Virus record (IMG/VR): IMGVR_UViG_3300025168_000036
Origin: a virus
Reading direction: 5' to 3' (one strand)
DNA: 64,000 bases
Part shown: piece after piece, positions 4,905-24,305 of the stretch
Layout of the letters: every line of letters starts with the position of its first letter
Position numbering within the stretch: the stretch's first letter is position 1
The notes under the pieces: model-generated
What the model was told of the DNA's origin: nothing
Database searches by the model: none
Seen by the model: the letters and a program-made list of their open reading frames with translations, nothing else
Made by a program: the position numbers and the translations under genes

Positions 4905-4907
4905 AAT

Positions 4908-5535: not shown

Positions 5536-5594
5536 CTAATTAAAAGTTAGGATCATTTGGATGTACCTCATCTATTATATGGTCCTTCCAAAAC

Positions 5595-6302: not shown

Positions 6303-6314
6303 AAACCTTTATTA

Positions 6315-6823
6315 AAGTGTACTGAGTATAACACTATTTACTTAATTGTAATTGTTTTTGGCTTTGCTTCCTCAGCCACTGGAATTGTAATACTTAACAA
6401 TCCATTTTCCATAGTAGCACTAATAGCATTAGTATCATACTTTGGATTAATTTTCCACCCCATATTAAATGCTTTCCTTACAATACCTCTATGTATATAA
6501 TGTCCAGCATCCTCATCTGATGGATTTGATTCAATACTAGGCCTTTCATAGATAACCCGTAAGGTGTTATCAGCAATATCAAGCTTAATATCATTTTTGT
6601 TTAATCCAACACAAGCTATATCAAAAAACAGTCCTGCCTCGTTAACCTTAATATCACATGGATACCCTGGCTTAACATCAGCAAAAGACTGAAATTCAGA
6701 TGTTGTGTCAAAAAAGTTTTTGAAAAATAGGTCTGTTGGTAACAGACGTTCATGTAAAAATTGTAAATTTCCCATATTTAATCTCCTTAGATAATTTTAA
6801 TTTTGTGCCTACTCAGTACACTT
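6315..6823. repeat. perfect 14-bp inverted repeats flanking hsp20
   Basis: AAGTGTACTGAGTA at 6315-6328 and TACTCAGTACACTT at 6810-6823. Confidence 0.85.
6338..6775 (-). CDS. small heat shock protein (Hsp20/alpha-crystallin)
   Basis: YPCDI, YIHRGI..KAF, ATMENGLLSITIP motifs; AAGGAG SD. Confidence 0.92.
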   Translation of the reverse strand: MGNLQFLHERLLPTDLFFKNFFDTTSEFQSFADVKPGYPCDIKVNEAGLFFDIACVGLNKNDIKLDIADNTLRVIYERPSIESNPSDEDAGHYIHRGIVRKAFNMGWKINPKYDTNAISATMENGLLSITIPVAEEAKPKTITIK

Positions 6824-6845
6824 GTTATAACCTTTAATATAAATA

Positions 6846-7553
6846 TCATTCTTTTATTAAATTTGTCTTCATTGGTAGTATTTTCTTAAGACCATCTGGT
6901 GTTTTTATTCTACCTACATTTTGATTTGTTTCTTTTGCCAAATCATAAACACTTTGGTATTTTCCAACTATATGCTGTATACCTGTCTTGTCTTGCTTTA
7001 TACATTTCACTATATCAGATGCAGCTTTATCAACATATTGCCTAACTGTAAATTGATCATCAAATGCATTATCATATTCAAATGTTTTTGTTCTTATAAA
7101 TGGAGCTCTTATGATTAGATGATTACTTAATGTACCTACAATAAGCTCACTACAAGCTTTTGATACTCCATATACATTTTTTGGATTCATAGGTGTACTT
7201 TCACTAATCTTACCATCATAATCAAATACATATTCACTTGATATATAGACCAATTTTATGTTTCTAGTTCTACAAAAGCTAACAATATTTTGCGTTCCTC
7301 CAACATTAATATCTAAACACTTTTGAGGATTGTCTTCACAACCTTTTGTATCTATATAGCCTGCTGAATGTATTATTGTTTTTATGTTTTTTGGTACCTT
7401 TAGTCTTAATTCTGGTAAGCATGTTATATCAAGCTGTTTTCTAGTTGGTGCTATACAATCTAGATTAGAAAGTATATTACTTCCTAAGTGTCCAGACCCT
7501 CCAAGTAGCATAATATTATTCATATAGTTTATCTTTAAGGCTTTCATATACAT
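6846..7553 (-). CDS. RmlD-like NAD(P)-dependent sugar-nucleotide reductase
   Basis: GGSGHLG, YISSEYVFD, YGVSK motifs. Confidence 0.8.
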   Translation of the reverse strand: MYMKALKINYMNNIMLLGGSGHLGSNILSNLDCIAPTRKQLDITCLPELRLKVPKNIKTIIHSAGYIDTKGCEDNPQKCLDINVGGTQNIVSFCRTRNIKLVYISSEYVFDYDGKISESTPMNPKNVYGVSKACSELIVGTLSNHLIIRAPFIRTKTFEYDNAFDDQFTVRQYVDKAASDIVKCIKQDKTGIQHIVGKYQSVYDLAKETNQNVGRIKTPDGLKKILPMKTNLIKE

Positions 7554-8283
7554 AAGGATTTGAATCTATAAGTTTTCCGCTTTTATCTAGCTTACTATGT
7601 AATAAGTCATAGTATTCCTTGTCTAGACCTTTTGTGTCTTTTCTATTTGCACCACCCCAACACATTTTCATCCATGTCTTTTCAAGATTTGTAGCACCTC
7701 CAGATGGAATTCCAATATTTGACATAAATACATTATCCTCCCAGCCGCCTGACATACTATCTAATTCAGATTGTAGTGGCCAGGTTGACCCTATACTTCT
7801 AATGTGAGATATTGAGCCTACATCAGACCAAGGATTATTTTGCCTTCTCATATTATATAAATCATCAAATGTTTTACTACAAATATTCTTTACAGTATTA
7901 TCTGGTTCCCCCAATAGTACACTATCGTAATTCAATATGTTTGGTTGTGATGTGCCCATAGCATAGTGTGACTCGAGGTGGTTAGGATATAGTATATCAT
8001 CATCAAGTAGATAGCAAATCATCTCACCTTTTGCCAATTTTATACCTAGATTAAATGATACTGCACCTAAATTATAGACGTAAGGGTCTTTATTTTCTAT
8101 AAATTTTATTCTACTATCATCTTTAAAGTCATTACATACAAGCTCTGTAAATGGGTCATGATCTGAGATAATAAGATGTTCAAAGTCTTCTAATGTCTGT
8201 CTTTGTGCTGATTGTATTGCTCTTCTAAGTAGATCTGGTCTAAAATATGAGCACGTTATTAATGTGATTTTTGGTTTTTTCAT
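7516..8283 (-). CDS. glycosyltransferase family 2
   Basis: ITCSYFRP..LRRAIQS..RQT and YLLDDD DXD motif. Confidence 0.85.
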   Translation of the reverse strand: MKKPKITLITCSYFRPDLLRRAIQSAQRQTLEDFEHLIISDHDPFTELVCNDFKDDSRIKFIENKDPYVYNLGAVSFNLGIKLAKGEMICYLLDDDILYPNHLESHYAMGTSQPNILNYDSVLLGEPDNTVKNICSKTFDDLYNMRRQNNPWSDVGSISHIRSIGSTWPLQSELDSMSGGWEDNVFMSNIGIPSGGATNLEKTWMKMCWGGANRKDTKGLDKEYYDLLHSKLDKSGKLIDSNPYVYESLKDKLYE

Positions 8284-8528
8284 TCTGAAAATATCTCTAT
8301 AAGTAGGACATTTTTATCATTTATCATGATAACTCTATTATCCTTATCTTTAAACTTTGTAAACTGACCTTGCTTTATTGATGTTGAGTCAATACCATGA
8401 AAAGTCCTCTTTTCACCTCCTATGAAGTGTATTACCTGTGTTACGTATTTACTACCTAACATTGTTTGTGATGATGATTTTAAGTCCATATTAGTCTCCA
8501 AATGGTTGATTGTCTTGTGGTACATCAC
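8280..8528 (-). CDS. hypothetical protein (true start may be internal)
   Basis: ORF in operon context. Confidence 0.5.
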   Translation of the reverse strand: MMYHKTINHLETNMDLKSSSQTMLGSKYVTQVIHFIGGEKRTFHGIDSTSIKQGQFTKFKDKDNRVIMINDKNVLLIEIFSE

Positions 8529-8805
8529 CAGTTATATCATCAATGTCCTCAATTTGTTCAGTATGTTCTCTATTTCTGTTATATTGTTCTATTAGCCAAT
8601 TATGAGAGTCACGAGCAAATTTCTCCTCATCCTTAAACAGATTTTCCTCTGGCTTACTAAAGTCCTCTAATTGTGCAAAATCATCTGTTGATATAGATAC
8701 TTGCACCCATTCATCATTTCTGTCATGATAAGGTCTAGTTAATTTATAGTCTGTTACTGTTCCTGAAATTGCATCACTTTTATGTATCCAAATATATACT
8801 TTCAT
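8491..8805 (-). CDS. hypothetical protein
   Basis: ORF in operon context. Confidence 0.55.
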   Translation of the reverse strand: MKVYIWIHKSDAISGTVTDYKLTRPYHDRNDEWVQVSISTDDFAQLEDFSKPEENLFKDEEKFARDSHNWLIEQYNRNREHTEQIEDIDDITGDVPQDNQPFGD

Positions 8806-8984
8806 TTTTTATTCTCTTTCTTAACCTTTTCAGATGCATATCTCCATCTTTCTCTTGTATCCTTATATCTATGTTTCTCTTGGCTATCCATTTTTTTAAG
8901 TTTTGAATCAAACTCCTCTTTGAGTCCTAGCTCCTTCATTTCATAATAAATTTCCATATATAAATCATCCCAAGACATAATCAC
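8802..8984 (-). CDS. hypothetical protein
   Basis: ORF with GGAGG SD. Confidence 0.55.
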   Translation of the reverse strand: MIMSWDDLYMEIYYEMKELGLKEEFDSKLKKMDSQEKHRYKDTRERWRYASEKVKKENKK

Positions 8985-8991
8985 CTCCTAT

Positions 8992-9423
8992 TTAGTCCAT
9001 TAAACTTTCATACAAATCACTTTTGTATGCTTCATGATCAAATGACTGACCATCCTTTGTTTGTGGCATCTTCTTTCTGATATCCGCCTTTGCATCATTA
9101 ACTGGTATGTTCTTTGTATTACCTACAGCATTTGAAATATCTCTTGCTGTTCCTTTAATATTTCTACTTTCTGTTTGTAGCCAATGATTAGTTATAAATG
9201 CATTTTTCCATGCACCCCAAACAGTATCTGATAGTCTTATATCTGCATACTGTTTTGGCATAAGATTATTACCAAACTGGTCACCTAAATAGTATTGTCC
9301 ATTTGGAGCTCTTCTGGTAATTGCACCTTTATATCTTTTTAACCTTCTTACTGTTTGTTTTACCAGTTGAAAGTTTTCTGGATTGATTTCTCTCCAGTCA
9401 ATTTGAATCTTTCTTCTTCCCAT
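8992..9423 (-). CDS. hypothetical protein
   Basis: ORF in operon context. Confidence 0.6.
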   Translation of the reverse strand: MGRRKIQIDWREINPENFQLVKQTVRRLKRYKGAITRRAPNGQYYLGDQFGNNLMPKQYADIRLSDTVWGAWKNAFITNHWLQTESRNIKGTARDISNAVGNTKNIPVNDAKADIRKKMPQTKDGQSFDHEAYKSDLYESLMD

Positions 9424-9427
9424 AATT

Positions 9428-9820
9428 TTATTTTTTACCTTTTTCTAAATAACTTTGCCACCAACCTGCTGTTAAGAATATAGCAGTAAAGCTAACAAAC
9501 ATATACAATACAAACCAAGGAGTATATGTTATATCACCATGCCATATAACTGGTGTTGCCATAAGTGCCATCCATGCAATAAAGAATAGCAAAGGATTTC
9601 TCTCTAACTTCTTTTCTACCTTAACAGTTCTTTCTGTATTGATTAATCTAGATAATGCATCTTGCATATCTGTACCATAGGCTGGTTGCTTATGGATTGT
9701 TCCGTCCTTTTCCGCAATCGTAATCATATACTTACAATATCCTTTGTGAGTTTTTGACTTTTCAAGAAGCTCACAATCAATAGCTCTTCTTCTTTCGTAT
9801 TTACTTTTCATTTTTACCAT
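9428..9820 (-). CDS. hypothetical membrane protein
   Basis: two C-terminal TM helices. Confidence 0.6.
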   Translation of the reverse strand: MVKMKSKYERRRAIDCELLEKSKTHKGYCKYMITIAEKDGTIHKQPAYGTDMQDALSRLINTERTVKVEKKLERNPLLFFIAWMALMATPVIWHGDITYTPWFVLYMFVSFTAIFLTAGWWQSYLEKGKK

Positions 9821-9937
9821 AACTTTTTATTTTGTACATTACATATCCTACTACTGGTGTACCATATAATAGTGTTAACAAACTAGGATGAGGTTCACCA
9901 CACATTCCTGTTGCATGTTTTAGAAATTCTAACATAT

Positions 9938-12046
9938 TTATTTTTTTAAGAACATTAAATTAAGTGTTTTAGCTAATGGAAGTAATTGAGATACATTGAT
10001 TCCTTCAGCATCCTTTCCGTACATTTTTTTGAATGTTTCAGTACCATTTTTGGATGCATCAATCATGTAGCTAAGTATTTTGATACCTCTATCTCTCATT
10101 TTGTTAACCATTCCCCTGGTGTGATCAATTGCATAGTTACCATAGTATTCCATCCCCTGTCCATTAAACCAAGGTTCACCATCAGAGAAGTTAATAAAGT
10201 AGCTATCCATTTTGCTATTTCCTTCAACCATTTCCTTTTGGATAGCCTCGAAGCATAAGCCTTCCGGTGTTGTACCATTACAATCAATATATTTGAATAA
10301 ATTTTTAATTTTTGTAAACTTATCTTTTCTAGAATCATAAGCAATTAAGACACATGGTGTGTGTTCATTTCCAACATTTGTTGTTGTTCTGTATGATATT
10401 ACCACATCTAATCCTTGAATCATTGAGGCCGCCTTAGCGATTGCAACACAAGAAATTGTAGCCTTATCAAACCTATTACCAGACATAGAACCAGAAGCAT
10501 CTATTGATAGATGAACATGAGCATCATTAAAATTGGTTACAAATGTTTGTTCAAATACATTTTCATTTCCAAATCCTAGTGAAGCCAACAACCTTTTGTC
10601 AATTCTACCTTTATTAAGCCTAGAATTTTTAAGTGATGTTGATTCATTTCTAACTTGTAGCTTTTTTCCAAGCATAATACCAAGCTTGATACCTCTGTTA
10701 ACACTATCTTGGTACCTTTCCTGCCTCCATTCAGTAAATAGATCTGAATAAATATCTGAATCAATTAAACCTTTAGTTAGATTTTTAATAACTAATGTAT
10801 TAAAACCTTTATAGTTTTTTGTACCTCCCCATGGGTGGTCATAGTTACCTGCACCTGCATTAACCATTTCAGATCCAGATGCATCCATTGCATCAACTTT
10901 TTTTGCATCCTTTTTAGAAAGCTTTGACTTTTTAACATCTGCATTATTGAAGTCTTTTTGCTTTTGAATTTGCTTATCCAAAGACCTTTCCTGTTGAGGT
11001 GTAAGTGGTTTAACTGGTGTTGAAGATGAATTATTTCCACCTGTTTGTTGGCCACCTTTTGGTGTATTATCAAGGTTTGGTGTGTTGTCCTTAACATCTG
11101 TACCTTTTGCTTTTGAACCATCATCCGTAGCACCACCAGAAGGGCCTTGTTTAGGTTGTTGGCCTTGTTGACCATTTCCATTACAAGTACCTTGTTGACC
11201 ATTTCCATTACAAGTACCTTGTTTGCCTTGTTTTTTACCTTCCTTACCTTTTCCAGAACAATTTCCTGGTTTTGGTATTGTAGCCTCGATAGTGTTAAAC
11301 ATTGTAATTGCAACATTAAGAGCATCTGTAGTATGTCTTAACCTTTTGATATCTGATAGGTTAATGATATTCCATGCATCCCTAAGAGCTGGAAGAGTAT
11401 TTAGATTTCTGTTTGGATTTGCAAAATTACAAATATGGAATAAGTAGTCATCCCATTTTGTTGGATCGTTTTTGGCACCTTGTTTTAATGCCTTATCAAT
11501 AATAGAAGCATTAAAGTATTTGTCATACATAGAGTGATAGTAGCCTTTATAGCCTGGTGCATTTGTAAATATGTGATAGTCAATTCTTCTGTCTTCCACA
11601 ATGTTAAGGAGCTGTGAAACAATACCTTGAACTTTATGAGTTGCTGACCATTCATCCATGTCATATTTATCCATTATGGATTGTAGATCAATTCTTTTGT
11701 TTTCTTTATCCTGTATAATTTCAGTTATTCTTGGAAGAACACTGAAGTCTGTTAGCTTAATGTGACTACCTTCATGTAGTGCAAGACCAACAGTTGAATC
11801 AAAGTCCTTGTCCTTGATATTACTTGATATGACTACTGATTTGCCATCAGTGTAAGAGTCATTTCCAGAAGAGAATTTAACTGGGATTGAGTCACCAGTT
11901 GTGATATTAACAAAGTTTGATATAGCCCTACGGATACCTGATAGTTTGTGTAGGTCCTTACCAATTGTTAGTTTTTCACCTGTTAGAACATCATAATCGT
12001 CCTCAGTGTTGAGCCAGAATGATGAGTTGTTGTTTGTGTTTTTCAT
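9938..12046 (-). CDS. VWA (MIDAS) domain protein with N-terminal HExxH domain, likely MoxR partner
   Basis: LALHEGSH, NIVEDRRI, low-complexity linker, DASGSM and SDGEP MIDAS motifs. Confidence 0.88.
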   Translation of the reverse strand: MKNTNNNSSFWLNTEDDYDVLTGEKLTIGKDLHKLSGIRRAISNFVNITTGDSIPVKFSSGNDSYTDGKSVVISSNIKDKDFDSTVGLALHEGSHIKLTDFSVLPRITEIIQDKENKRIDLQSIMDKYDMDEWSATHKVQGIVSQLLNIVEDRRIDYHIFTNAPGYKGYYHSMYDKYFNASIIDKALKQGAKNDPTKWDDYLFHICNFANPNRNLNTLPALRDAWNIINLSDIKRLRHTTDALNVAITMFNTIEATIPKPGNCSGKGKEGKKQGKQGTCNGNGQQGTCNGNGQQGQQPKQGPSGGATDDGSKAKGTDVKDNTPNLDNTPKGGQQTGGNNSSSTPVKPLTPQQERSLDKQIQKQKDFNNADVKKSKLSKKDAKKVDAMDASGSEMVNAGAGNYDHPWGGTKNYKGFNTLVIKNLTKGLIDSDIYSDLFTEWRQERYQDSVNRGIKLGIMLGKKLQVRNESTSLKNSRLNKGRIDKRLLASLGFGNENVFEQTFVTNFNDAHVHLSIDASGSMSGNRFDKATISCVAIAKAASMIQGLDVVISYRTTTNVGNEHTPCVLIAYDSRKDKFTKIKNLFKYIDCNGTTPEGLCFEAIQKEMVEGNSKMDSYFINFSDGEPWFNGQGMEYYGNYAIDHTRGMVNKMRDRGIKILSYMIDASKNGTETFKKMYGKDAEGINVSQLLPLAKTLNLMFLKK
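11163..11223. repeat. 27-bp tandem duplication encoding QGTCNGNGQ x2
   Basis: exact repeat ccttgttgaccatttccattacaagta at 11163 and 11190. Confidence 0.9.
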
Positions 12047-13622: not shown

Positions 13623-13805
13623 TTAGTCAATTTTTATTACTATAGCGACATCTTGTTTATTACAATATTTTTCCTTGATTTTTCTTGCAGCCTTTATTGT
13701 GTCATCAAGTGAATCTGAGACATCTGCAATAAGATTATTACCTGTATCATCTTTTAGGTACGCAATATGTTCGCCTGTTTGTAGCTCTTTAATTTCTATT
13801 AACAT
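13623..13805 (-). CDS. hypothetical protein
   Basis: ORF. Confidence 0.5.
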   Translation of the reverse strand: MLIEIKELQTGEHIAYLKDDTGNNLIADVSDSLDDTIKAARKIKEKYCNKQDVAIVIKID

Positions 13806-14223
13806 ATTCTTCCCTTTTTTGTTTTAATTCCTCTAATCTATCGATGTAGAAGTTTAGGCATTTGTTATAAATATCATCCTCATAATAATACTTAACGTAT
13901 TCTATGGCTTTATTTTCCATAAATATTTCATGATCGTAATAGGCTTCATCCCTCCTAGCCTGTACTGCTTGGTGCATTCCATTATAGTGTATTATGTGAG
14001 CCCTTTCATGTCCAATAATATATGGTTCAATCCAAGAACCAAACTTTTTAATGAGATCTATATTAAGCCATATCTGCCTGCAAAAGCCTGCATAGTGTGT
14101 GCAACCAAATTTATTTTTAACAAATATGTGTGAATCTGGTAAGTATTCTAGATAAAATGTTTTATCATACTTACATATTAGCCTACCATCAATTGGTGAC
14201 TGTATATAACTCCATTCCTTCAT
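13789..14223 (-). CDS. putative zinc metallopeptidase-like protein
   Basis: IIGHERAH (HExxH) with downstream E..A. Confidence 0.55.
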   Translation of the reverse strand: MKEWSYIQSPIDGRLICKYDKTFYLEYLPDSHIFVKNKFGCTHYAGFCRQIWLNIDLIKKFGSWIEPYIIGHERAHIIHYNGMHQAVQARRDEAYYDHEIFMENKAIEYVKYYYEDDIYNKCLNFYIDRLEELKQKREEYVNRN

Positions 14224-14241
14224 TTTTATAACCTTTTAATT

Positions 14242-14430
14242 TTATTCCCACTGCCTATTGTATTTATCTCTTTGGTCTTGTAGGACATATTGTACTGAAT
14301 CATGGTGGCCACAATGTGGGCATCTTAGCTTATCCAAGTTCTTTGCTTCGTTTATCTTCCACTCTTCCTTACACTTTTCATTACTACACTGGTAGATAAA
14401 TGTATGCCTTATAAATACCTTATGACCCAT
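14242..14430 (-). CDS. zinc-ribbon protein
   Basis: CSNEKC and CPHC pairs. Confidence 0.6.
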   Translation of the reverse strand: MGHKVFIRHTFIYQCSNEKCKEEWKINEAKNLDKLRCPHCGHHDSVQYVLQDQRDKYNRQWE

Positions 14431-14953
14431 ACATGCGCTTTACGACATTACCGCCTTTCTTTAGCTTTCTTTCATAATATCCATCTTCTAAGTGCTTAAT
14501 AAATTTAGGGCCCACCATCTTTTCAATCTTCTTTTTATCCAAGACAACTGGTGCACCCTTAGATGACATAATCTGATCCATCTTCTTACTGCCTTCAAGA
14601 GAGTATCCAGTCTTTACCATTTTAACAACCTTCTTTACAACAAGAGACTTACTTAGTGAGCCTCCATCTGTTGCTAATAGCTTAACCCTTCTACCTCTTG
14701 TAAATATAAATGCATCTGGCATTGGGTCTTTATCTACATCTATTAACATTACCAATTCATACCCAGACTTTAATTCTGCAGCTGAAAATGCTGATAGTTG
14801 CATGCCTTGTGCTTGATATACTGCTTTATAATCCTTAAATATATTATCCAATATCTTGCTATCTATAGTAGAAAGCTTCTGTGTTATCCACTTCTTTTTT
14901 GGATGATTATTTAGATCATAATCTTCACCTAATATGTTGACAAGCTTAATCAT
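14420..14953 (-). CDS. putative internal virion protein (MIKLVNILGE leader)
   Basis: shared N-terminal motif; start set at the Met that gives the motif. Confidence 0.6.
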   Translation of the reverse strand: MIKLVNILGEDYDLNNHPKKKWITQKLSTIDSKILDNIFKDYKAVYQAQGMQLSAFSAAELKSGYELVMLIDVDKDPMPDAFIFTRGRRVKLLATDGGSLSKSLVVKKVVKMVKTGYSLEGSKKMDQIMSSKGAPVVLDKKKIEKMVGPKFIKHLEDGYYERKLKKGGNVVKRMYGS

Positions 14954-15528
14954 TACCACTTTTTACAAGACCAATAGCCTGCTGATGTTTTATCTTTCTT
15001 TTGATCACACTTATGTCTAGCCCTAAATGATCTTCTAGCTTCAGGATTGTCCTTTTTTATTCTTGCACCCTTCTGTCCAAAGTTCACCTTCTTAACACCC
15101 ATAGAGCCATCAGCATTCTTTTTGCCTGATGCAACATAAACCTTAAACTTTCCAACATCACCAGCCATAGGTTTGTTTAACTTAACCTTACGACCTTCAT
15201 ACTCAGCCTCAAGAATGGGACCTTCATTTGTTGCTTTGTGCATTGCTGTAAGATATTCCATGAAGCACTCCATTTCAGATTCCCTTACTAGTTCCTCATT
15301 TTCCTTTATCTTAACACACTTATCTTTACCATTTTTTGTACCAGCGTATCTATATCCATCCCAACATGCTTTTCCATCAGCGCCTTTTATTTTACCTTCA
15401 ATATCTAGAGTCTTTGGGTAGTCCTTGTCTCCAGGTTTTGCAGGTTTTTCACCACGCTTTCTCTTAGCATGTATGTTTGCCCATAAGCCTTTGTTCTTTT
15501 TTTCTTTTAATATCTTTTTTAACTTCAT
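14953..15528 (-). CDS. basic putative virion protein (MKLKKILKE leader; C-terminal RARHKC...GYWSC domain seen in T4-like phages)
   Basis: GKACWDGY module and ARRSFRARHKC...AGYWSCKKW; GGAGG SD. Confidence 0.65.
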   Translation of the reverse strand: MKLKKILKEKKNKGLWANIHAKRKRGEKPAKPGDKDYPKTLDIEGKIKGADGKACWDGYRYAGTKNGKDKCVKIKENEELVRESEMECFMEYLTAMHKATNEGPILEAEYEGRKVKLNKPMAGDVGKFKVYVASGKKNADGSMGVKKVNFGQKGARIKKDNPEARRSFRARHKCDQKKDKTSAGYWSCKKW

Positions 15529-15537
15529 TGTTGCCTC

Positions 15538-16851
15538 CTAGAATCTATCCAATTTATCTATTTTAGCCATTAACTTCTTAAACTCGGCTTTTTTCTTTTT
15601 ATATTCTTTTTCTAATTTAGCTATTTCCTTACCATATTTATCAGCAACCTTACCACCTTCTGGTTCAGCTTCCTGCTCCATATCCTTATGAGTTTGTGAT
15701 AAATCTTTAGCAATACTTCTCATATCATCTTCAAGGTCCATACTATCCATTCTCAGATTCTGTAGCTTATCAAAGTGCTTCCATAGAGATGTAGCTTCCT
15801 TAAGCTTTCCTATAAAACTTTTGCCTTCTTCTAATTTAGCTTCATTAAGATCAATTAGCTTATTGCCTGACTTTTTGATAATTAAGTTATCCTTTTTCAT
15901 CATTATTGCCAAAGCCCTACCAAAGTCTTTTCCTTGAGGTCCTTTATTAGGAATTCTGCTATATTCTTTTGCACTTTTATTAGCCCATGCTAACCATATC
16001 TGCCTTAGTGCAAGGAATGTATCAGTACCAGGATCTCTACCATTCCCTACAGACTTTAATATTATATTCTTTACAGCCTTTCTATTTTTATATACCCATT
16101 TCTTAAAGTCTAAATATGCAAACTCATTGGGTGTATCTTGAAACATTGGTTGGCCTTCGTTTACTGATTCTTCAACCTCGCCGTATTTATTAACTCTATT
16201 CATATTGATATCTGATACCCAGTAAGCAGTCATTCCGTGAGATGATTTTGGCCCTATATATTTTTCAGCATCTTTATAGCTTTTGAATACTTGAGGCTTT
16301 TTCCAATTTGACCCAGATGACTTAAGTATACCTTTACCTTGACCTCTACCCTTATTATACGTTACATAGAATTTAGCTTCTCTCATTTGATCTGGATCAG
16401 AAAACCCTTCATCAGGTAGTTCAGCTTCAGTATACATGTCTCTTTCAAATCCACTAGGTAAGTTATTCCACTTAGATTCAATGTATTCTTCTGCATCATC
16501 TGGGTCTTTAACAACAGTAAGTAGAGCATCATATTTTTCATCATCGCTCATCTTCTTCCACATATTCTTTGTGACTTTTTTTGCTTTTGCCTCATTAATA
16601 CTTTCTGTGTATAAATCTTTACCTTTATGTTTGCCTTTATACTTAACTGTAGATACTAATATAGGATGAAAACTCTTAGGGTTTGAGCCAAACTTAACAT
16701 ATGCAACCTGGCCTTTTACTTTATTTACCACACCAATCTCACCCATTGATTCTATGTGGTCACCCTTTTTAAGTTTAACCTCGGTCATCTTAAATGCCTT
16801 GCCGTATCCTGTAAATACTTGGCCTTGTTTTATATTTCCTGGTAGTTTCAC
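15538..16851 (-). CDS. multi-module putative internal head polyprotein
   Basis: repeated (I/V/L/M)xE-(A/G) junctions such as ESINEA, ESVNEG, DLNEA. Confidence 0.6.
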   Translation of the reverse strand: MKLPGNIKQGQVFTGYGKAFKMTEVKLKKGDHIESMGEIGVVNKVKGQVAYVKFGSNPKSFHPILVSTVKYKGKHKGKDLYTESINEAKAKKVTKNMWKKMSDDEKYDALLTVVKDPDDAEEYIESKWNNLPSGFERDMYTEAELPDEGFSDPDQMREAKFYVTYNKGRGQGKGILKSSGSNWKKPQVFKSYKDAEKYIGPKSSHGMTAYWVSDINMNRVNKYGEVEESVNEGQPMFQDTPNEFAYLDFKKWVYKNRKAVKNIILKSVGNGRDPGTDTFLALRQIWLAWANKSAKEYSRIPNKGPQGKDFGRALAIMMKKDNLIIKKSGNKLIDLNEAKLEEGKSFIGKLKEATSLWKHFDKLQNLRMDSMDLEDDMRSIAKDLSQTHKDMEQEAEPEGGKVADKYGKEIAKLEKEYKKKKAEFKKLMAKIDKLDRF

Positions 16852-17552
16852 TATTTTCTCCTTATCTCTAATTCTTTTTTAATCCATTTTTTGGCAATAT
16901 AGTTTTGAATTGGCCTTTTAACAAATTCCCTTGCTTTTGCTTTTACTATGTTTGCAAATTCTTTATATTCACTATTGTCAACAACAAGTATATTACTTGC
17001 ACCAAATAGAGACTGGAATTTACCTAAGTTCTGGTTAACTTCTTGCCAGGACTTTTTAACTAAATCTTCTGGTACAGTTCTTTCTCTTTCTGCATTTCTT
17101 TTTAATGCAACCTTAAGATCTGTATTTACATATACCATATAGCAGTCATAGCCTTGAGATTGTAGCATGCCTTTCATTTTTTGTATCTTATTATAATTCT
17201 TACCTGTACCATCAATTAACATTCCTAGCCTACTATTGATAAAGCCCTGCATTCTCTTAGCTGTGACTGATTTTGCCTTGCCTCTTAAGTTCATTGCATC
17301 TGCATGCTGATCTTTTGTAAGCTTTTCAAGATCCAGTGGCATTTTTGCTTTTTTCATATATGCCTCAAATGCCTGATCAGAGTTTACACCTTTTAATCCT
17401 TGTGATGAAACATAGGGCATCTTTTCTGGCATACCAAAAAGTGTAGATGCTGCATATGACTTTCCACTACCAGGGCCTCCAGCAGTAAATACTGCCTTAA
17501 ATATACCTGGATCGTATACACCTTCGCTTAATATGTCAGTTAACTTAATCAT
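16851..17552 (-). CDS. zeta-toxin-like P-loop kinase with MIKLTDILSE leader
   Basis: GGPGSGKS, VNSD, IDGTG, GY...V...ALKRNAER, RTVP motifs. Confidence 0.75.
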   Translation of the reverse strand: MIKLTDILSEGVYDPGIFKAVFTAGGPGSGKSYAASTLFGMPEKMPYVSSQGLKGVNSDQAFEAYMKKAKMPLDLEKLTKDQHADAMNLRGKAKSVTAKRMQGFINSRLGMLIDGTGKNYNKIQKMKGMLQSQGYDCYMVYVNTDLKVALKRNAERERTVPEDLVKKSWQEVNQNLGKFQSLFGASNILVVDNSEYKEFANIVKAKAREFVKRPIQNYIAKKWIKKELEIRRK

Positions 17553-17767
17553 TTTAACTTATTAATGAGCTCTTTGATAAACGGTTTTATATTATGAGAG
17601 CCATACTCATCTTTTATTATTGTTGCAACATCTGCTGCAAGATTCTTGTATGAATAGTTATCAGGGATTGCTTTAAGCATATTATCCTTGACACCTTCAC
17701 TAATTCTATGCAATTGCTTTGAGTGTTCTAATATCTTCATTTTATATACCTCATGTACTTTTTCCAA
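17549..17767 (-). CDS. hypothetical protein
   Basis: ORF; probable start at 17740 (MKILEH). Confidence 0.5.
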   Translation of the reverse strand: MEKVHEVYKMKILEHSKQLHRISEGVKDNMLKAIPDNYSYKNLAADVATIIKDEYGSHNIKPFIKELINKLK

Positions 17768-18159
17768 TTCTTTTCTGCACTTGTTGCTGCTTTTTCGTAA
17801 GGATGTGTTGCGTATGTATATTTACCTGAATCATATCCATCCTCAAACTTTTTTTTATTTTGTAATGAATGCGTATGCTCATGTAAAAGAGACCTTATTA
17901 CCTCCTCAATATTTTTTATAGCCGAACCATATAAATATATCTTCTTTAAGTCCCAGTCATATTGTGCATAAGGATTATTATCTTTCATTAAGTCATCAAT
18001 TGCAACTGCACCTAGTCTTTTATAGATATTATTATGTACTTCAACTTTTAACTCCCTGCCGCCTAAAGATCTTACTATATAAGGATACACACTATTAACA
18101 ACACCAATAATATCTTTTGTTGTCATTCTTTCTGATAATATGCTTTTTAGCTTAATCAT
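17737..18159 (-). CDS. HExxH metallopeptidase-like protein with MIKLKSILSE leader
   Basis: LLHEHTHSLQ and HPYEKAA motifs. Confidence 0.7.
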   Translation of the reverse strand: MIKLKSILSERMTTKDIIGVVNSVYPYIVRSLGGRELKVEVHNNIYKRLGAVAIDDLMKDNNPYAQYDWDLKKIYLYGSAIKNIEEVIRSLLHEHTHSLQNKKKFEDGYDSGKYTYATHPYEKAATSAEKNWKKYMRYIK

Positions 18160-18686
18160 CTTGGATATATTACTCCCATCAAATCATCTACTCTTAATAT
18201 AGCATTTATTTTATTACCAACGTGAAATGTTTCTTTTTCATTCTTACTTAAACCAACTTCCTTACCAACCTTATACAACCAGTTGGGATTTCCAACGAAA
18301 CTATTATCAACTTTAGCTACGATAATTGCAGGTGTCTTATTCTGTGATGATGCATTAAATTGTGAAAACTTCCTAGCTATAAACTCATCATAAGTGAATG
18401 ATTGAACTCCTCTTCTAGATTTATATGGTATTTTATAATACAAATATCTTTCTTCCACCTTTGAAGGTTTCATTTTCTTCAACATTTTTGTATCAACAAC
18501 TGTACCTCTGTATACTTCACCACTCTTTGGTTTTAATTCTTTAGGATAATCTGACTTTTTTTTATATAGAGACATGATTGTACTATCTATATTGGTTGAC
18601 CTTTCACCACCAGCTTTCATGTACTTCTTTAACATTTCAATTTCTTTTGAAATATCTTCATTTAATATGTCTGTTAGTCTAATCAT
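18156..18686 (-). CDS. ADP-ribosyltransferase-like protein (R-S-E clade) with MIRLTDILNE leader
   Basis: VYRG, QSFT....IARKF and EKE in the canonical order. Confidence 0.65.
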   Translation of the reverse strand: MIRLTDILNEDISKEIEMLKKYMKAGGERSTNIDSTIMSLYKKKSDYPKELKPKSGEVYRGTVVDTKMLKKMKPSKVEERYLYYKIPYKSRRGVQSFTYDEFIARKFSQFNASSQNKTPAIIVAKVDNSFVGNPNWLYKVGKEVGLSKNEKETFHVGNKINAILRVDDLMGVIYPR

Positions 18687-18693
18687 CTTATTG

Positions 18694-19224
18694 TTATCTT
18701 CTAGGTTGAGATGATAGTCCGTATCCTATTCTACCTGTATCAGCTTTACTTCCGTAATAGTCTGATTGTGCTTTAGCTTCTTTATCTAATGCTGCTTTGG
18801 CACCTGCTTCGTTCTTCTTGATTGCAGACTTGTTTTTCTTCCAAAATTCTAATAGATGTTCGTTTGTAAAGTCTCTCCATTCAACTGGATTACCTTTAAA
18901 CTTAAATACCTTTTTGCCATCTATATCTGCTGGGCCAGTTTTATTTTTATCATACCAACTGTAGTTAAAGTATTGATGCTTGCCATTCCTCCTAAAGCTT
19001 ACTCCTATCTGCCCACCCATATTTCTTGAATGATGCCATTTGAAACTAAATCCACCTGTGCCATCACCAAATCTAAATTCACTGTATTCGAATGATGAAC
19101 CATAGTCATCTTTATATTTGGTTAGCTTTTTAATATCAGCTACTATCTTACTAACTGTAGACTGATCAAACATCTTAGTGTTGTCCATTCTATCTTCATT
19201 TAATATATCTTTAAGCTTTATCAT
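18694..19224 (-). CDS. putative internal virion protein (MIKLKDILNE leader)
   Basis: shared N-terminal motif. Confidence 0.6.
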   Translation of the reverse strand: MIKLKDILNEDRMDNTKMFDQSTVSKIVADIKKLTKYKDDYGSSFEYSEFRFGDGTGGFSFKWHHSRNMGGQIGVSFRRNGKHQYFNYSWYDKNKTGPADIDGKKVFKFKGNPVEWRDFTNEHLLEFWKKNKSAIKKNEAGAKAALDKEAKAQSDYYGSKADTGRIGYGLSSQPRR

Positions 19225-19399
19225 ATTACTTTTTCCCTTTTTTTGGCATTACTACACTTGAGCACAGACTTTTTACCTTACTTTTAATTGCACTGTTTTC
19301 AGGGTTCTTTCTAAGTTTCTTTTTTAGCATAGAAATTTCAGTTAATTTCTTTTTCCAATCTTTTCTAACACCGTTTTTTCTTCTAGACATAGATATCTC

Positions 19400-19615
19400 C
19401 TATTTTTTTGCAAACTTTTCCAAGCCTGCTATTCCAAAGCAACCAAGAACAACTAATACGAATGAATCATAAACAAACTCATTTATAACTAGGTCTTTTC
19501 CAACCCAACCAGTTACTAGATCAGCAATCATAATTAAACACATAATAATAAACGCAATAAAGCCAACAATGGCTTTTTCATTCCAGTTATTATCATCTTT
19601 GAATATATTCCACAT
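19400..19615 (-). CDS. two-TM membrane protein (holin-like)
   Basis: two TM helices and a basic C-terminus. Confidence 0.5.
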   Translation of the reverse strand: MWNIFKDDNNWNEKAIVGFIAFIIMCLIMIADLVTGWVGKDLVINEFVYDSFVLVVLGCFGIAGLEKFAKK

Positions 19616-19644
19616 AGTAGTCCTCTATAATTTTATAATAAATA

Positions 19645-20004
19645 TCAAAATGAGTCCATTAAAATTTCGTCTATTGCCTCCTGAACCTCATCTTTTGTTA
19701 CTTTCATTGTAAAAGATATATCAGCTTGATACCTTTTAACTTCTTCACCTTCATAAAATATAATAATTGTTGGTACAACTACTATTTCGTATTTATTTTG
19801 AGCCTTTGTATCTGTTGCAATGTCACAAGATTTTAATTTTGCATCATTTAGGCTTGAGACCCATTCGACATCATTTGCAGAGTTCCATCCTGCATTAAAG
19901 TGTACTATAGTAAGATCACTGCCTAGTTTTAGTGTTTGGCCTATTGCTGTAGACATACATAGTAAAAATAATATTGTTAGTAAATAACCTAATTTTGTTT
20001 TCAT
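19645..20004 (-). CDS. exported thioredoxin-fold protein lacking CxxC
   Basis: signal peptide; HFNAGWN at the WCxxC position; VVPTIIIF..GEEVKR. Confidence 0.7.
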   Translation of the reverse strand: MKTKLGYLLTILFLLCMSTAIGQTLKLGSDLTIVHFNAGWNSANDVEWVSSLNDAKLKSCDIATDTKAQNKYEIVVVPTIIIFYEGEEVKRYQADISFTMKVTKDEVQEAIDEILMDSF

Positions 20005-20013
20005 AACTATCTC

Positions 20014-20298
20014 CTATCTGAGTCTGTCTATTTTTTGTTCTATTCTATCTAAGTCTTCTTTTAACTCTTCCACATCATCTGCAGTATTTTCGATAGTTAG
20101 ACGTATATTTTTATCTTTCATGTCAAATTCCATTCTTGTGACATCTGGTGGTGGTGGGACCGGAAGTTCTTTTGCTTCCTGAATATCCGCTTGTAGTGCA
20201 AACCACATACCTACAACAGTTGCAATTGCAAATGCTATTCCTATTAATGTTTTTATACTGACCTTAAAGCCTGTATCTTCGTTTAACTCTTTTGCCAT
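20014..20298 (-). CDS. TM + coiled-coil protein
   Basis: single TM helix, Pro-rich linker, heptad C-terminus. Confidence 0.65.
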   Translation of the reverse strand: MAKELNEDTGFKVSIKTLIGIAFAIATVVGMWFALQADIQEAKELPVPPPPDVTRMEFDMKDKNIRLTIENTADDVEELKEDLDRIEQKIDRLR

Positions 20299-20307
20299 TT
20301 CATTCTC

Positions 20308-21381
20308 CTAAAATATGACGTAATTAACACCTATACTAAAGTCATGCCAATTACGGTTCCAGTACTTATTATATTTACCCTCTATAAAGCAACCTAAGTG
20401 CTTATCAAACTTATATCCAAATATCAAACCACCTGAATAGTCTATCCATTGGCCACCATTATAAGCATGGTAGCTAAATTCACCACCATCATCATAGTGA
20501 TATGGCATTAAATTACCCCATGAATGTACCCAAAATGTCTTTGTGTAATGATAAAAGTCAAATCCAATTACAACAGAGTGTTGAAGTGTACTTTTTAATT
20601 CATTTCTTTTGTTTTCGGTATACTCAGACAACATTGTTGGTATAACAACAGCTTCCCAGACCTCTGTGCTTGTAGCTACTTCGTTACCAGATTGATTAAT
20701 ATATGCAACGCCACCTTGACCATCAAATTGTACACTATAGCCCTCTTGTATTGCTAATTCTGTATAGTGTAGATTGCCATTTGATAATAGCCACTCTTCC
20801 AAAGGATCATAGCCATAAGGTTCAGCCAATCTCTGTACTGCACCTACATTGAATGATAACTTGTTTCCTAGTTTATATCTGTATCTCTCGGAAGCTTCAA
20901 AGTATTCTATGTCTGCAAATCCATCTTGTAAATATTCAACCTTAGCAATCCAATCGTTTGCAACATATCTTAAAAAGTGGTTTTGATTTAAGAAATTAGT
21001 ACCTTGCTGTCTTGTGTAGTCTGCCTCGAATAAAAACTCAAACCCCTTTAACTTTCCAATAGTAGCAGCATCACTAAATGAATTTTCTGTACCATTATAG
21101 AATGTATTTGCTCTATTTTCATATCCTAACCTAGCAATCTTTCTTACACCGAATGTAATTGAATAATCAAATGGTGTTGCAATTGTTTGAGTAGACAATC
21201 CATTGTTTACTGAAAATACATCTACATCAGAAACTGAATTTCCTCCGTTGATTGCGCCATAAAATGTTGCAAACTTAAATATCTTTTTAAGATCTACTTT
21301 TTTCTCTTGTGCACAGCACTTATTTGGGACTGCACAAGATGCAATTAATATTGCTAATAAAATTACTAGTATTTTTTTCAT
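20308..21381 (-). CDS. outer-membrane beta-barrel protein
   Basis: signal/lipobox-like N-terminus, aromatic-rich alternating strands, C-terminal VNYVIF. Confidence 0.7.
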   Translation of the reverse strand: MKKILVILLAILIASCAVPNKCCAQEKKVDLKKIFKFATFYGAINGGNSVSDVDVFSVNNGLSTQTIATPFDYSITFGVRKIARLGYENRANTFYNGTENSFSDAATIGKLKGFEFLFEADYTRQQGTNFLNQNHFLRYVANDWIAKVEYLQDGFADIEYFEASERYRYKLGNKLSFNVGAVQRLAEPYGYDPLEEWLLSNGNLHYTELAIQEGYSVQFDGQGGVAYINQSGNEVATSTEVWEAVVIPTMLSEYTENKRNELKSTLQHSVVIGFDFYHYTKTFWVHSWGNLMPYHYDDGGEFSYHAYNGGQWIDYSGGLIFGYKFDKHLGCFIEGKYNKYWNRNWHDFSIGVNYVIF

Positions 21382-24305
21382 TGTTTTATTATCCTCTTAC
21401 TGTATCTATTTTCTTTATGTGTTATGACCATATTATATGTACCTGGAGAAACACCCTCTAAGCTTAATCTTATTGTATTACTTCCTGCCTCACTTAATAT
21501 TGTTCTACCCATCATATCATATAAATCAACCCTAACATCAAGCCTTGTTTCTATATTTAATATGTTATTAGTTGGATTTGGGTAAACTACTATTCCTAGT
21601 GCTGATATATCATCTATCCCTACTGGCCAACCTAATTGACAATAGTCATACATTGATTGACAACTTGCATCCCAACTATTTGTACAACAATAGTCATCTA
21701 CATCAATTACCCAAGCATAGCATCCATCATTTAACCAATAAGGAATTCCTGGTCCTCCATAGCATCCTGCATTATATAAGCAAGATGTTGAGTCTGATAC
21801 ATTTGCTAATGGATCATAATTCCATGCACTTACATCTGTACAACCTATCACTATGTCAATACAACTACCATCATCATAACAAGCATCTGGGTCATAGTTT
21901 AATGACCAATCTTGAGTACATCCAGCTATATAACAACATGAATTATCTAATGTATTTGCTAGTGGATTAAAGTTTAATGATGTATTATCTGTACAACCAT
22001 AGACAAATGGTTCACATGTTCCATTATCTGTATTTGCTAGTGGGTCATAATTAAATTGTGTTGAATCTGTACATCCATAAATAAATGGTATGCAGTTACC
22101 AGATGGTGTATTTGCTAGTGGATCATAGTTAAACATCGTTACATCCATACATCCAATTACAACTTGTATACAAGATGAATCATCTACATTAGCTAATGGA
22201 TCATAGTTAAATGCTGTTGGGTCTGTACAACCTAACACTGGATAAATACACCCATTATTTACTGTTGCTGTTGGGTCATAATTAAGAGCTGTAATATCTG
22301 TACAACCTATATAATAACAAGATCCATCATCTGTATTTGCAGAAGCATTATAGTTATCTGCTATTGTATCAGTACATCCTGTAATAATTGGTACACAGCT
22401 ATTATCATCTACATTAGCTAATGGATTGTAATTAAATGCTAAATCATTAGTACAACCTAATATCTCAGGAATACAATTTCCATCATCTGTATTAGCATTA
22501 GGGTTATAATTAAATGCAGTAGAATCCATACATCCTAACACTGTTGGTATACATGTTGTTCCACAAAATGGTATTGCTGTATATTTTGTAAAGAATGGAG
22601 AATCAAATCCTTGAAGTGCTCCTTGACCGTTATTTGCAAATGGATTTTGTCCTTCATATAATAACTCAACACCATTAGCATTTGTTAGCTTAAATGAATT
22701 ATGCCAAGTTTGAAATTGTACTTCTTGTGGTGGTTGTTGAGGTCCACCTACTTCAAAATAGAATACATCTACTGGTACACCTGGATCAAGAATTATATTC
22801 CATGTATTTTGATAATTTCCTGGGCCTAATGTATAAGTTCCAAGATTAATACCATTCTGATATACACCTATATATGAATTACCCCAGCCATCTCCTCCAG
22901 CATCTCCAATCCATAATTCGTAATTACAATCTGGTATTAAGTCCATCATAGTAGCTGTTGAGTCATAGTTAAATGCATTAGGGTTAGTACATCCGTAAAT
23001 ATGTAGGTTAGTACAAGATCCATCATCAACATTTGCTTGGGGATTAAATTCTACATAATCATCATCTGTACATCCAGGTATTTCTGATATTGTAGGGCAA
23101 GGTGTTGCTGTTTGTGCTCCTGAATATAAAGTATTTCCAAAGCCTGGATTGTCCATATACCAAATAGTGTCACCTGTACAATCGTAAATAACAATTGAAC
23201 CATCCATTGTTCCACCAGATGTAGAACCTGCCATTCCATCACCAAAGTCATCATTAACTATTAATTCAAACCCTGAATTTTGGTCTACACAAAAATTATA
23301 TGTGTATGTCTGTCCTATATCATTAAAGTCATATTCTCCTACAAGTACTGAGTCAATAACCCCTAAGCTATTCATTATCCATGATGTTTCACCTGGCCAG
23401 TTATCTAATGTAATTTCCATTGTTATTTGGTATTCATTTGTTGTATCACATATTGTACCAGCACAACTTCCGTCATCATTTGTTGCCCAAGGATTATAAG
23501 ATATTTGAGTAGGATCTGTACAACCATCTATACATGGAGTAGGTGTGTAAGTAATAGTATCAGACATTGTGCCATCTGCAAACTCTACTTGTAAATAATG
23601 TTCTACACTCCAATTAGGTGGCATTTGGCCATTACCTGCATTTACTGCAAAATTAGTTGCATTTGCTGGTACACCGTATTGATATGGTCCAACACCTTCT
23701 GCATTTGTATACCATACCTGAACTGTTTCACAAGAAGGATTATAATCTTCTGTAGTCCATTCAAATACAATTAAGGCTTGTCCTCCTGGATAACAATTTT
23801 GATATGCATTAGACGACAAAATCCCACCACAGGCAGGATATGTACAACTACCATCATCTGCAGTTGCTAGTGAGTCATAGTTTAATGCATTTGTATCTAT
23901 ACATCCAAACACATCTGGTGCAGGTGGTGCACAAGGTGCAATTGTTAATGTATCTATATATGATAGCCCAAAATTACCAGCTACATATAATAATGTATCT
24001 TGACAATCATTTTGAATTAAAAACCATCCATCAGTTCCACCCCATTGCGAAGCAGCTAATCCATCACCATACTGATCAAATATAGATACAACAATATCTC
24101 CTCCTATTGGAATAATTGTATCATATAAAAAATTAGCTTCTGTGATTGAATCATTTCCTATAATAATAGGTGAACCTCCTGGAGGTGTAATATTCCAGCT
24201 TGTTTCTGATGGATAATTATCTGTTAATAGTTGTATGTTTATCCAACTATTTTGTGCTAATAACATTGTTGGCAATAAAGCCAATACTAATAATAATTTT
24301 CTCAT
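21378..24305 (-). CDS. secreted Cys-repeat protein with T9SS type A C-terminal sorting domain
   Basis: signal peptide, 14 GCTD..A.NY.P.A..DDGSC repeats, C-terminal YPNP...YDMMGR...G.Y...KRIIKQ. Confidence 0.9.
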   Translation of the reverse strand: MRKLLLVLALLPTMLLAQNSWINIQLLTDNYPSETSWNITPPGGSPIIIGNDSITEANFLYDTIIPIGGDIVVSIFDQYGDGLAASQWGGTDGWFLIQNDCQDTLLYVAGNFGLSYIDTLTIAPCAPPAPDVFGCIDTNALNYDSLATADDGSCTYPACGGILSSNAYQNCYPGGQALIVFEWTTEDYNPSCETVQVWYTNAEGVGPYQYGVPANATNFAVNAGNGQMPPNWSVEHYLQVEFADGTMSDTITYTPTPCIDGCTDPTQISYNPWATNDDGSCAGTICDTTNEYQITMEITLDNWPGETSWIMNSLGVIDSVLVGEYDFNDIGQTYTYNFCVDQNSGFELIVNDDFGDGMAGSTSGGTMDGSIVIYDCTGDTIWYMDNPGFGNTLYSGAQTATPCPTISEIPGCTDDDYVEFNPQANVDDGSCTNLHIYGCTNPNAFNYDSTATMMDLIPDCNYELWIGDAGGDGWGNSYIGVYQNGINLGTYTLGPGNYQNTWNIILDPGVPVDVFYFEVGGPQQPPQEVQFQTWHNSFKLTNANGVELLYEGQNPFANNGQGALQGFDSPFFTKYTAIPFCGTTCIPTVLGCMDSTAFNYNPNANTDDGNCIPEILGCTNDLAFNYNPLANVDDNSCVPIITGCTDTIADNYNASANTDDGSCYYIGCTDITALNYDPTATVNNGCIYPVLGCTDPTAFNYDPLANVDDSSCIQVVIGCMDVTMFNYDPLANTPSGNCIPFIYGCTDSTQFNYDPLANTDNGTCEPFVYGCTDNTSLNFNPLANTLDNSCCYIAGCTQDWSLNYDPDACYDDGSCIDIVIGCTDVSAWNYDPLANVSDSTSCLYNAGCYGGPGIPYWLNDGCYAWVIDVDDYCCTNSWDASCQSMYDYCQLGWPVGIDDISALGIVVYPNPTNNILNIETRLDVRVDLYDMMGRTILSEAGSNTIRLSLEGVSPGTYNMVITHKENRYSKRIIKQ

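Follow-up and report, generated by a model that had tools for sequence, protein, structure and literature searches.

A 64,000-nucleotide stretch of viral DNA (IMG/VR virus record IMGVR_UViG_3300025168_000036; the whole stretch is called the window below) was found to encode six otherwise unrelated proteins that start with a common motif of about ten residues, MIKLxDILxE. From comparison with other phages, this motif is probably the lineage's version of the capsid-targeting sequence (CTS) of phage T4. A capsid-packaging tag had been proposed in a preliminary description of this DNA, and the proposal was supported by the comparisons: the motif is laid out like the T4 CTS, relatives encode a prohead protease of the T4 gp21 type, and a homologue of one of the tagged proteins, gp53 of phage Atu_ph07, is present in virions.

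According to the model that we propose, the short amphipathic leader would bind the scaffolding core during prohead assembly and the protein following it would be enclosed; the T4 gp21-type prohead protease would then cut after I-L-x-E and free the mature protein inside the head. The block of genes at 14420-19224 would be a variable cargo cassette, in which an ADP-ribosyltransferase (ART)-like enzyme, a P-loop kinase and an HExxH protein are combined with a basic, DNA-binding-like module and with domains lacking an assigned function, and the hydrophobic-x-E linkers inside related polyproteins would be cut likewise, yielding the same modules. For the window phage we infer core binding, cleavage and packaging, ejection with the DNA, and any host target. 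By analogy to the T4 internal proteins (IPs) and Alt, the packaged proteins would be ejected and would act on the host.

The shared N-terminal motif

The motif starts six minus-strand open reading frames (ORFs) between 14420 and 19224, all at the positions given in the preliminary description: MIKLKDILNE (start 19224, encoded by 19195-19224), MIRLTDILNE (start 18686, 18657-18686), MIKLKSILSE (start 18159, 18130-18159), MIKLTDILSE (start 17552, 17523-17552), the variant MKLKKILKE (start 15528, 15502-15528), and MIKLVNILGE (start 14953, 14924-14953; the start is this ATG, not the GTG at 14959). A genome-wide motif scan had been suggested, and when it was run in six frames over the 64-kb window, the M-anchored motif was detected in these six places only. 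In a crude gene set, the tag headed 6 of 88 ORFs, compared with none of 507 internal methionines. With a much looser pattern, matches were obtained at 10 of 97 N-termini and at 25 of 523 internal methionines; given the latter rate, the four extra N-terminal matches (an NrdB-like protein, a dNMP kinase and two small ORFs) are at chance level.

The tag ends in I-L-x-E in all six ORFs. The cargo bodies behind it were mutually unrelated, as had been claimed (18 cargo clusters), and gave different Pfam and PHROG results; across 60 related loci, approximately 16 cargo clusters bear the tag. The six ORFs are part of a single tight minus-strand block of eight, running from 19224 to 14420, in which the stop and start codons overlap in most cases. 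In the seventh member, the tag is shortened to MKILE; the eighth, of 437 aa, starts with a longer leader whose last residues are MTE.

The T4 capsid targeting sequence was reportedly described by Mullaney and Black in 1996. It reads MKTYQEFIAE (PMC8442874) and is carried by IPI, IPII, IPIII and Alt, from which it is removed by gp21 (reviewed in PMC9026906, PMC3012670 and PMC5694885). Cleavage by gp21 takes place after L/I-x-E, ten residues are enough for targeting, and positions 4 and 7 matter for targeting while positions 8 and 10 matter for processing (PMC9026906). The window resembles this system in having an N-terminal peptide of about 10 residues common to unrelated proteins of one phage, with hydrophobic residues at positions 4, 7 and 8 and Glu at position 10, which are the conserved positions of MIKLxDILxE. 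In both cases, the peptide ends in an (L/I)-x-E site for a protease of the gp21 family, here encoded by relatives, and the cargo is variable, non-core and includes an ADP-ribosyltransferase (Alt in T4). The tag sequence is different, only M1 and E10 being identical to those of MKTYQEFIAE; intermediate tags, MKTFKQHIKE and MKTFAELQE, were found in more distant marine relatives. The window phage is also far from the T-even phages (split DnaE polymerase, GroEL, probable Bacteroidota host), and its cargo is mostly enzyme-like and not made up of small basic proteins. A further difference is that the window's relatives also use the element as an internal linker in polyproteins, and the system described here is known from sequence alone.

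The motif had been regarded as a modular packaging tag, and its modularity was supported: a given cargo stands behind different tags from lineage to lineage, and the same domains occur behind internal hydrophobic-x-E linkers. In IMG/VR, 563 relatives of the kinase encoded at 16851-17552 were located via a downstream motif; they are conserved from GVYDPGIFKA on, always directly after Glu. The tag in front is MIKLxDILxE in the window's clade, MKQFKxIIQE and MKVNSFIQHLAE in two other lineages, MKTFAELQE in the Methylophilales phage Melnitz, and MIPFILKE in pelagiphage HTVC008M. Homologues of the ART-like protein bear MRYFKTFESFVNE or MVNLLREYIRELLTE in place of MIKLxDILxE, and MRYFKTFESFVNE was found even in front of a body that is 80-82% identical. 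Conservation begins directly after Glu in the kinase, ART and HExxH families and in the family of the domain encoded at 18694-19224 (the 18694 domain).

Selection on the tag itself is seen among the homologues of the HExxH protein. When 69 of them were compared, the tag ranked second in conservation among all 10-residue segments (0.88, against 0.90 for the segment with HExxH), and pairs with 44% identity in the body had 83% identity in the tag. A neutral explanation would take the tags as functionless remnants, left when the 5′ end of one gene was duplicated repeatedly; the adjacency of the genes and the differing array content of relatives would agree with it. Its probability is close to nil: the tag is conserved like a catalytic motif among homologues reaching down to 38% identity, and other lineages substitute tags of the same layout, a conservation pattern by which this explanation is effectively refuted.

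The element also occurs inside proteins. A search for the 18694 domain gave 40 representative proteins, 56 to 945 residues long, with the domain in N-terminal or internal position; in approximately 35 of them, it follows hydrophobic-x-E (KSINE, NKLTE and DGLNE are examples); a complete MIQLKESLNE precedes it at residue 430 of an 826-aa protein. The domain encoded at 14420-14953 forms the C-terminal half of a 408/416-aa protein in loci L045 and L049, where the two halves are joined by LTLKNLLSE and LSLKNLLPE, respectively, the N-terminal half in L045 being a Pfam PAP2 domain. Residues 230-347 of the 437-aa ORF are a separate gene in locus L046, with the tag MIHLKNILSE before GRPMFQ; the corresponding junction in the window is SVNE followed by GQPMFQ. 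This internal recurrence of a tag-like peptide excludes an explanation based purely on start codons and agrees with modules being delimited by a protease site.

The DNA encoding the tags had been described as similar too, and this holds, since the plus strand reads TAATAT...ATCAT at all six. Each tag begins with ATG-AT or ATG-AA, continues with ATA-TTA, and has GAA one codon on. Codon use was compared in 46 distinct tag DNAs from the window and related loci L003-L061: Ile7 was ATA in 44 of 44 and Leu8 was TTA in 37 of 44 (background use, 55% and 38%), and codons 2, 3, 4, 6 and 9 varied synonymously. An element acting at the RNA or DNA level, as a translation initiation signal or a regulatory or recombination site with the peptide as a by-product, would be in keeping with this ATA-TTA bias over background at codons 7-8 and with the pattern ATG-A...ATATTA, then GAA one codon on, in all six window tags. 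We consider it highly improbable, as the remaining codons (2, 3, 4, 6 and 9) vary freely while their residues are kept, the hydrophobic-x-E layout persists in other lineages even though their codons and residues are unrelated, and the same peptide motif is present inside polyproteins, far from start codons. It had further been suggested that the conserved 5′ DNA could support the shuffling of cargo. Module boundaries do coincide with the tag; however, only about 6 to 11 bases are conserved, which is too short for ordinary homologous recombination, and shuffling driven by this DNA is therefore weakly supported.

Prohead protease, head module and virion proteins

Evidence on the protease and head genes was drawn from the contigs of relatives only; exact 40-base searches of IMG/VR and JGI metagenomes, made to reach the head genes of the window phage itself, gave no match. 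A T4 gp21-type prohead protease (PF03420, Peptidase_S77) was detected above cut-off in 8 of 10 larger related IMG/VR contigs, including G007, the closest relative, whose kinase is 88% identical to that of the window. The genes of G007 are arranged in the order tail fibres, tagged kinase, 758-aa nucleotidyltransferase polyprotein, terminase, portal, protease, scaffold, and capsid protein. Among the close relatives examined, the tagged kinase opens the head module in most, including G007 and six more of the closest loci; these six show the same order to the end of each locus. Part of the order (polyprotein, terminase, portal, protease, bS21, capsid protein) is kept in the cultured Microcystis phage Mel-JY01. 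In this phage, the gene for ribosomal protein bS21 is situated between protease and scaffold (L104, 22183-22410); the counterpart position in G007 is L100 7125-7556.

In another relative, G001 (170.8 kb), a strict tag pattern was found on 8 of 208 genes, namely six in the block, the capsid protein gene and the DNA ligase gene; the ligase start (MKELKQFIDE) is regarded as a chance match, and the ligase was rejected as a tagged protein. Array content varies between relatives, and in G001 and the window the kinase gene lies inside the variable block of tagged genes. Judged from gene order, the kinase has moved into this block in the window's genome and in G001.

The tag resembles the N-terminus of the scaffold protein in T4 as well as in the window's lineage. 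The scaffold starts with MAKSDLLKE in G001 and MSKDLLKE in G007; in the T4 record, the scaffold gp22 starts with MLKEQLIAE, gp24 with MAKINELLRE, gp21 with MNEPQLLIE and gp67 with MEGLIE (scaffold and core N-termini were taken from L109 (T4) 4782-10607, L087 21211-22272 and L100 5864-6820). The resemblance suggests that the tags mimic the N-terminal segment of the scaffold.

Virion data are available for cultured phages with related proteins. The window kinase matches residues 243-453 of Atu_ph07 gp53 (37% identity, E 6e-45), a 778-aa protein with its kinase domain (Pfam Zeta_toxin, AAA_33) just after SEVTE. It belongs to a set of eleven adjacent genes, gp53-63 (L108, 11485-22593), of which gp53-62 start with M[RK]WxQLxE and gp63 with the looser MRLFQLLE; a YRG motif is present approximately 35-45 residues in for most of them. 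All eleven proteins are listed for the virion in Table S5 (electrospray ionization tandem mass spectrometry, ESI-MS/MS), ten with 7-31 unique peptides and 30-47% coverage and gp55 with 3 peptides and 12% coverage (PMC6102473). Although predicted to be 87 kDa, gp53 peaks in the gel band holding 21-22 kDa proteins (PMC6102473), a low-mass band that would be expected if gp53 were cut. The T4 gp21 homologue of Atu_ph07 is gp204, and the paper mentions neither the tag nor the kinase, processing or the gp53-63 family (PMC6102473).

The Atu_ph07 array is thus like that of the window in its adjacent genes, its short shared tag ending in L-x-E and its gp21 homologue, and gp53 contains a homologue of the window kinase just after a V-T-E junction. 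It differs in that the tag has 8 residues and another sequence, the kinase is located within a 778-aa polyprotein, and most of the cargo belongs to one paralogous family of about 30 kDa with the YRG motif. No similarity between the window ART-like protein and gp54-63 was detected by BLASTP or with a hidden Markov model (HMM) of the homologue alignment, and Pfam gave nothing in the Atu_ph07 proteins tested; homology is claimed for the kinase only. In the Ralstonia jumbo phage RsoM2USA (L107, 1603-4744), ORFs 254-258 include four starts of the MxxFKxYLxE type: MTTFKEYLLE on the kinase, and MRLKQFLME, MKFSDYILE and MNQTFKQFLTE on its neighbours. An ORF257 of this phage, presumably the one in this cluster, was reported as an abundant virion band (PMC8504454). 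Nucleotidyltransferases of the type encoded behind the kinase in relatives, possible homologues of window ORFs, have been repeatedly detected in cyanophage virions (PMC9602691).

Loading into the prohead need not imply injection. The tagged proteins could act in the head or in assembly, for instance as accessories of the core or scaffold, by condensing DNA, or as enzymes on the packaged DNA; alternatively, they could be degraded and expelled like T4 gp67 and gp68. The T4 core proteins gp22, gp67, gp68 and gp21 do have N-termini of the internal-protein type; in appearance, the basic KGLWANIHAKRKRGE module of the 191-aa ORF and the coiled-coil module at the C-terminus of the 437-aa ORF are structural, not enzymatic; and most T4 core proteins are degraded, not delivered (PMC9026906). 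We regard this possibility as unlikely, since the ART, kinase and HExxH proteins have intact catalytic motifs under purifying selection and no obvious substrate in the capsid, the T4 precedent with enzymatic cargo, Alt, is ejected (PMC9026906), and Atu_ph07 gp53-63 persist in mature virions.

The shared N-terminus could also be recognized by a different trans-acting factor; in place of the prohead, a modifying enzyme, the GroEL of the phage or a secretion pathway, for example, would read it as a leader. The window phage encodes its own GroEL, and a small untagged HExxH ORF is located at 13789-14223, just downstream of the array. However, no candidate enzyme was found to accompany the tag, a signal peptide would have to be more hydrophobic than this, the conserved positions and terminal Glu fit the gp21 rule, and the tagged kinase is found in the head module and its homologue in virions; a factor of this kind is accordingly very unlikely. 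The signal-peptide reading was rejected by inspection, the tag being charged and amphipathic, and ORF 13789-14223 was rejected as a dedicated tag protease because it had a homologue in none of 80 related loci.

Several points weigh against a capsid-targeting function of MIKLxDILxE. The virion data, with the gel band that hints at cleavage, come from more distant phages such as Atu_ph07, not from the window phage or its close relatives, and L/I-x-E, being a three-residue motif, holds little information alone. The Atu_ph07 virions were purified with polyethylene glycol (PEG) only, and no peptide positions are given in the paper (PMC6102473). The capsid protein of the closest relative, G007, starts with MSQINDLLQD, without Glu, and in L057 one homologue of the 18694 domain begins untagged. 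Podoviruses of Pelagibacter and Roseobacter, which are not T4-like, also have the C-terminal domain of the 191-aa ORF, indicating that this cargo family is not specific to the tag packaging route. The near-invariant ATA-TTA at Ile7-Leu8 hints at an extra constraint at the nucleotide level, for which the peptide model does not account.

Cargo of the array and its surroundings

The first tagged ORF of the array (18694-19224, 176 aa; minus strand, as are all those that follow) carries, after MIKLKDILNE, a widely shuffled domain without assigned function. Its AlphaFold2 (AF2) model had a predicted local distance difference test (pLDDT) score of 82. Foldseek gave nothing below E 0.02 for this model, the top matches being phage P1 head chains with a TM score of approximately 0.23. 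A likeness to actin-capping protein in a wide VIA search (Z 8.1) was dismissed as not meaningful, with a root-mean-square deviation (rmsd) of 4-6 Å.

The second tagged ORF (18156-18686, 176 aa; MIRLTDILNE) encodes a compact ART-like enzyme. In 16 homologues, Y59-R60, Q95-S96-x-T98 and E150-x-E152 are invariant, which gives the order of the R-S-E clade (Arg, S-x-T, catalytic E-x-E). The AF2 model (pLDDT 88) found almost exclusively ARTs among its leading Foldseek matches, at E of about 0.02, with mono-ART toxins, Tpt1/KptA and Arr as structural neighbours; superposition on Vis toxin (4xzj) gave a moderate VIA Z of 7.0, with an rmsd of 3.6 over 137 aligned residues. No Pfam ART model matches this ORF. 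The earlier assignment to ART-like enzymes is nonetheless supported by the invariant R, S-x-T and E-x-E and by the structural neighbours, and the protein is plausibly a small analogue of T4 Alt.

The third tagged ORF (17737-18159, 140 aa; MIKLKSILSE) encodes a small HExxH protein resembling metallopeptidases. A total of 89 homologues were found, nearly all with the tag and, among those of full length, nearly all with HE[HY]TH; tblastn against a phage collection detected no cultured relatives. The metallopeptidase function assigned to it earlier is backed by this invariant motif, but by the motif alone, as the match to Pfam DUF3920 (E 0.001, 19.7 bits) was below cut-off. Next in the block is, tentatively, a small ORF of 63 aa (17549-17740, ATG at 17740), starting with MKILE on ATA-TTA-GAA codons, containing a later site, RISE followed by G, and overlapping the upstream gene by ATGA. 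A homologue of this ORF was not found in the related loci fetched.

The fourth tagged ORF (16851-17552, 233 aa; MIKLTDILSE) encodes a P-loop kinase of the AAA_33/Zeta_toxin superfamily, and the earlier designation as zeta-like was upheld by Pfam matches above cut-off to both AAA_33 (43.5 bits, cut-off 27) and Zeta_toxin (40.4 bits, cut-off 22.3). It has the Walker A motif GGPGSGKS and a weaker PHROG match to polynucleotide kinase (E 2e-9). The gene after that of the kinase encodes, in the window's clade, a single nucleotidyltransferase polyprotein (L100/G007, 16428-19402); in HTVC008M (L001, 4260-8453), it adjoins a ligase-like gene upstream (motif KNTHLEHLED) and a nucleotidyltransferase gene downstream. 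RNA-ligase-like and nucleotidyltransferase genes are also present in cyanophage P-HM2 (L105, 670-3782), and a homologue of the kinase was not found in cyanophages. Judging by these resemblances, the kinase, nucleotidyltransferase and ligase-like proteins may represent an RNA-repair-like toolkit packaged in the virion.

The multi-module ORF of 437 aa (15538-16851) has a GTG start and no canonical tag, its leader ending in KMTE. Its last 90 residues are shared with other proteins, at whose ends they follow x-E junctions. The fifth tagged ORF (14953-15528, 191 aa; MKLKKILKE) consists of the basic module mentioned above and a C-terminal domain. This module of 30 residues (KGLWANIHAKRKRGEKPAKPGDKDYP) is 83-90% identical to its counterparts in T4-like cyanophages, far above the remainder of the protein, and in P-HM2 (L105, 3500-3700) it is located inside a 'cytidyltransferase' polyprotein, after VEE. 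With x-E sites on both sides, it could be a released DNA-binding peptide. The C-terminal domain is widely distributed, either alone or at the ends of polyproteins. The sixth tagged ORF (14420-14953, 177 aa; MIKLVNILGE) has a domain without assigned function.

The untagged HExxH ORF downstream of the array (13789-14223) is 144 aa long; its motif, the second HExxH of the region, is GHERAH, and it showed a weak YgjP-like match. A 62-aa ORF with a four-Cys zinc ribbon is also situated just downstream of the array (region 13789-14430) and likewise had homologues in 0 of the 80 related loci. On the other side, at 19400-24305, the array is flanked by a conserved block of genes for membrane or exported proteins that is syntenic in L045, L046 and L049. 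They include a 71-aa transmembrane protein, proteins of 119 and 94 aa, a lipoprotein-like beta-rich protein of 357 aa, and one of 975 aa that has a type IX secretion C-terminal domain motif at its end. The window as a whole is a strand-biased stretch of a large phage genome, encoding a split DnaE-type polymerase, a DnaB-like helicase, a UvsX/RecA-type recombinase, ribonucleotide reductase and GroEL. Its source is an uncultured marine phage with Bacteroidota as the probable host.

Relation to known systems and implications

Capsid targeting is, as a principle, textbook T4 biology. A T4 review proposed that, by means of the CTS, T4-like phages can package a variety of proteins (PMC9026906). In view of both, the advance made here is one of breadth and cargo, not of mechanism: new are the distinct tag, the enzyme-rich set of cargo and the clear connection of the tags to the linkers of polyproteins. 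No description of tags of this kind in marine T4-related or Atu_ph07-type phages was found in the literature searched.

Two further groups of phages can be compared. In phiKZ, 201phi2-1 and SPN3US, propeptides of head-internal proteins are similarly cut after Glu by a diverged gp21 homologue, with multiple cut sites per propeptide and some enzymatic cargo (virion RNA polymerase); they differ in that the propeptides have 80-130 residues and an (S/A/G)-x-E motif, and unrelated proteins do not have a short tag in common (PMC5694885). The NMNAT/cytidylyltransferase-like proteins of cyanophage virions (PMC9602691) have a parallel in the nucleotidyltransferase polyprotein encoded directly after the tagged kinase in the window's relatives and HTVC008M, and in the basic module of the 191-aa window ORF, which lies inside the P-HM2 'cytidyltransferase' ORF. 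The difference is that a tag and processing are absent from the discussion in that paper (PMC9602691).

A wider scheme is put forward tentatively, and we hold it to be rather doubtful as a whole. The N-terminal tag and the internal linkers might be one interchangeable 'address and cut' module, used by T4-related phages of SAR11, Methylophilales, cyanobacteria, Flavobacteria, Agrobacterium and Ralstonia, by which enzyme domains are moved between genes and polyproteins. The conserved core cargo would then be an injected RNA-repair-like set, consisting of the polynucleotide-kinase-like P-loop kinase, a nucleotidyltransferase and an RNA-ligase-like protein, that pre-empts RNA-targeting defences of the host. 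If this 'address and cut' reading is true, the virion cargo of uncultured phages would be readable directly from sequence.

If MIKLxDILxE is indeed a capsid-targeting tag, capsid cargo could be recognized by a sequence rule, namely a leader of 8-10 residues that is specific to the lineage and ends in hydrophobic-x-Glu, combined with a protease of the gp21 type; the rule would apply to an abundant group of uncultured marine phages. Such a tag would offer a natural means of loading foreign proteins into Bacteroidota phages. Even before the expression of phage genes, the host could be acted on by the variable enzymes of the array (ART-like, kinase, HExxH and others), and the capsid-targeting principle of T4 would be extended well beyond the T-even phages.

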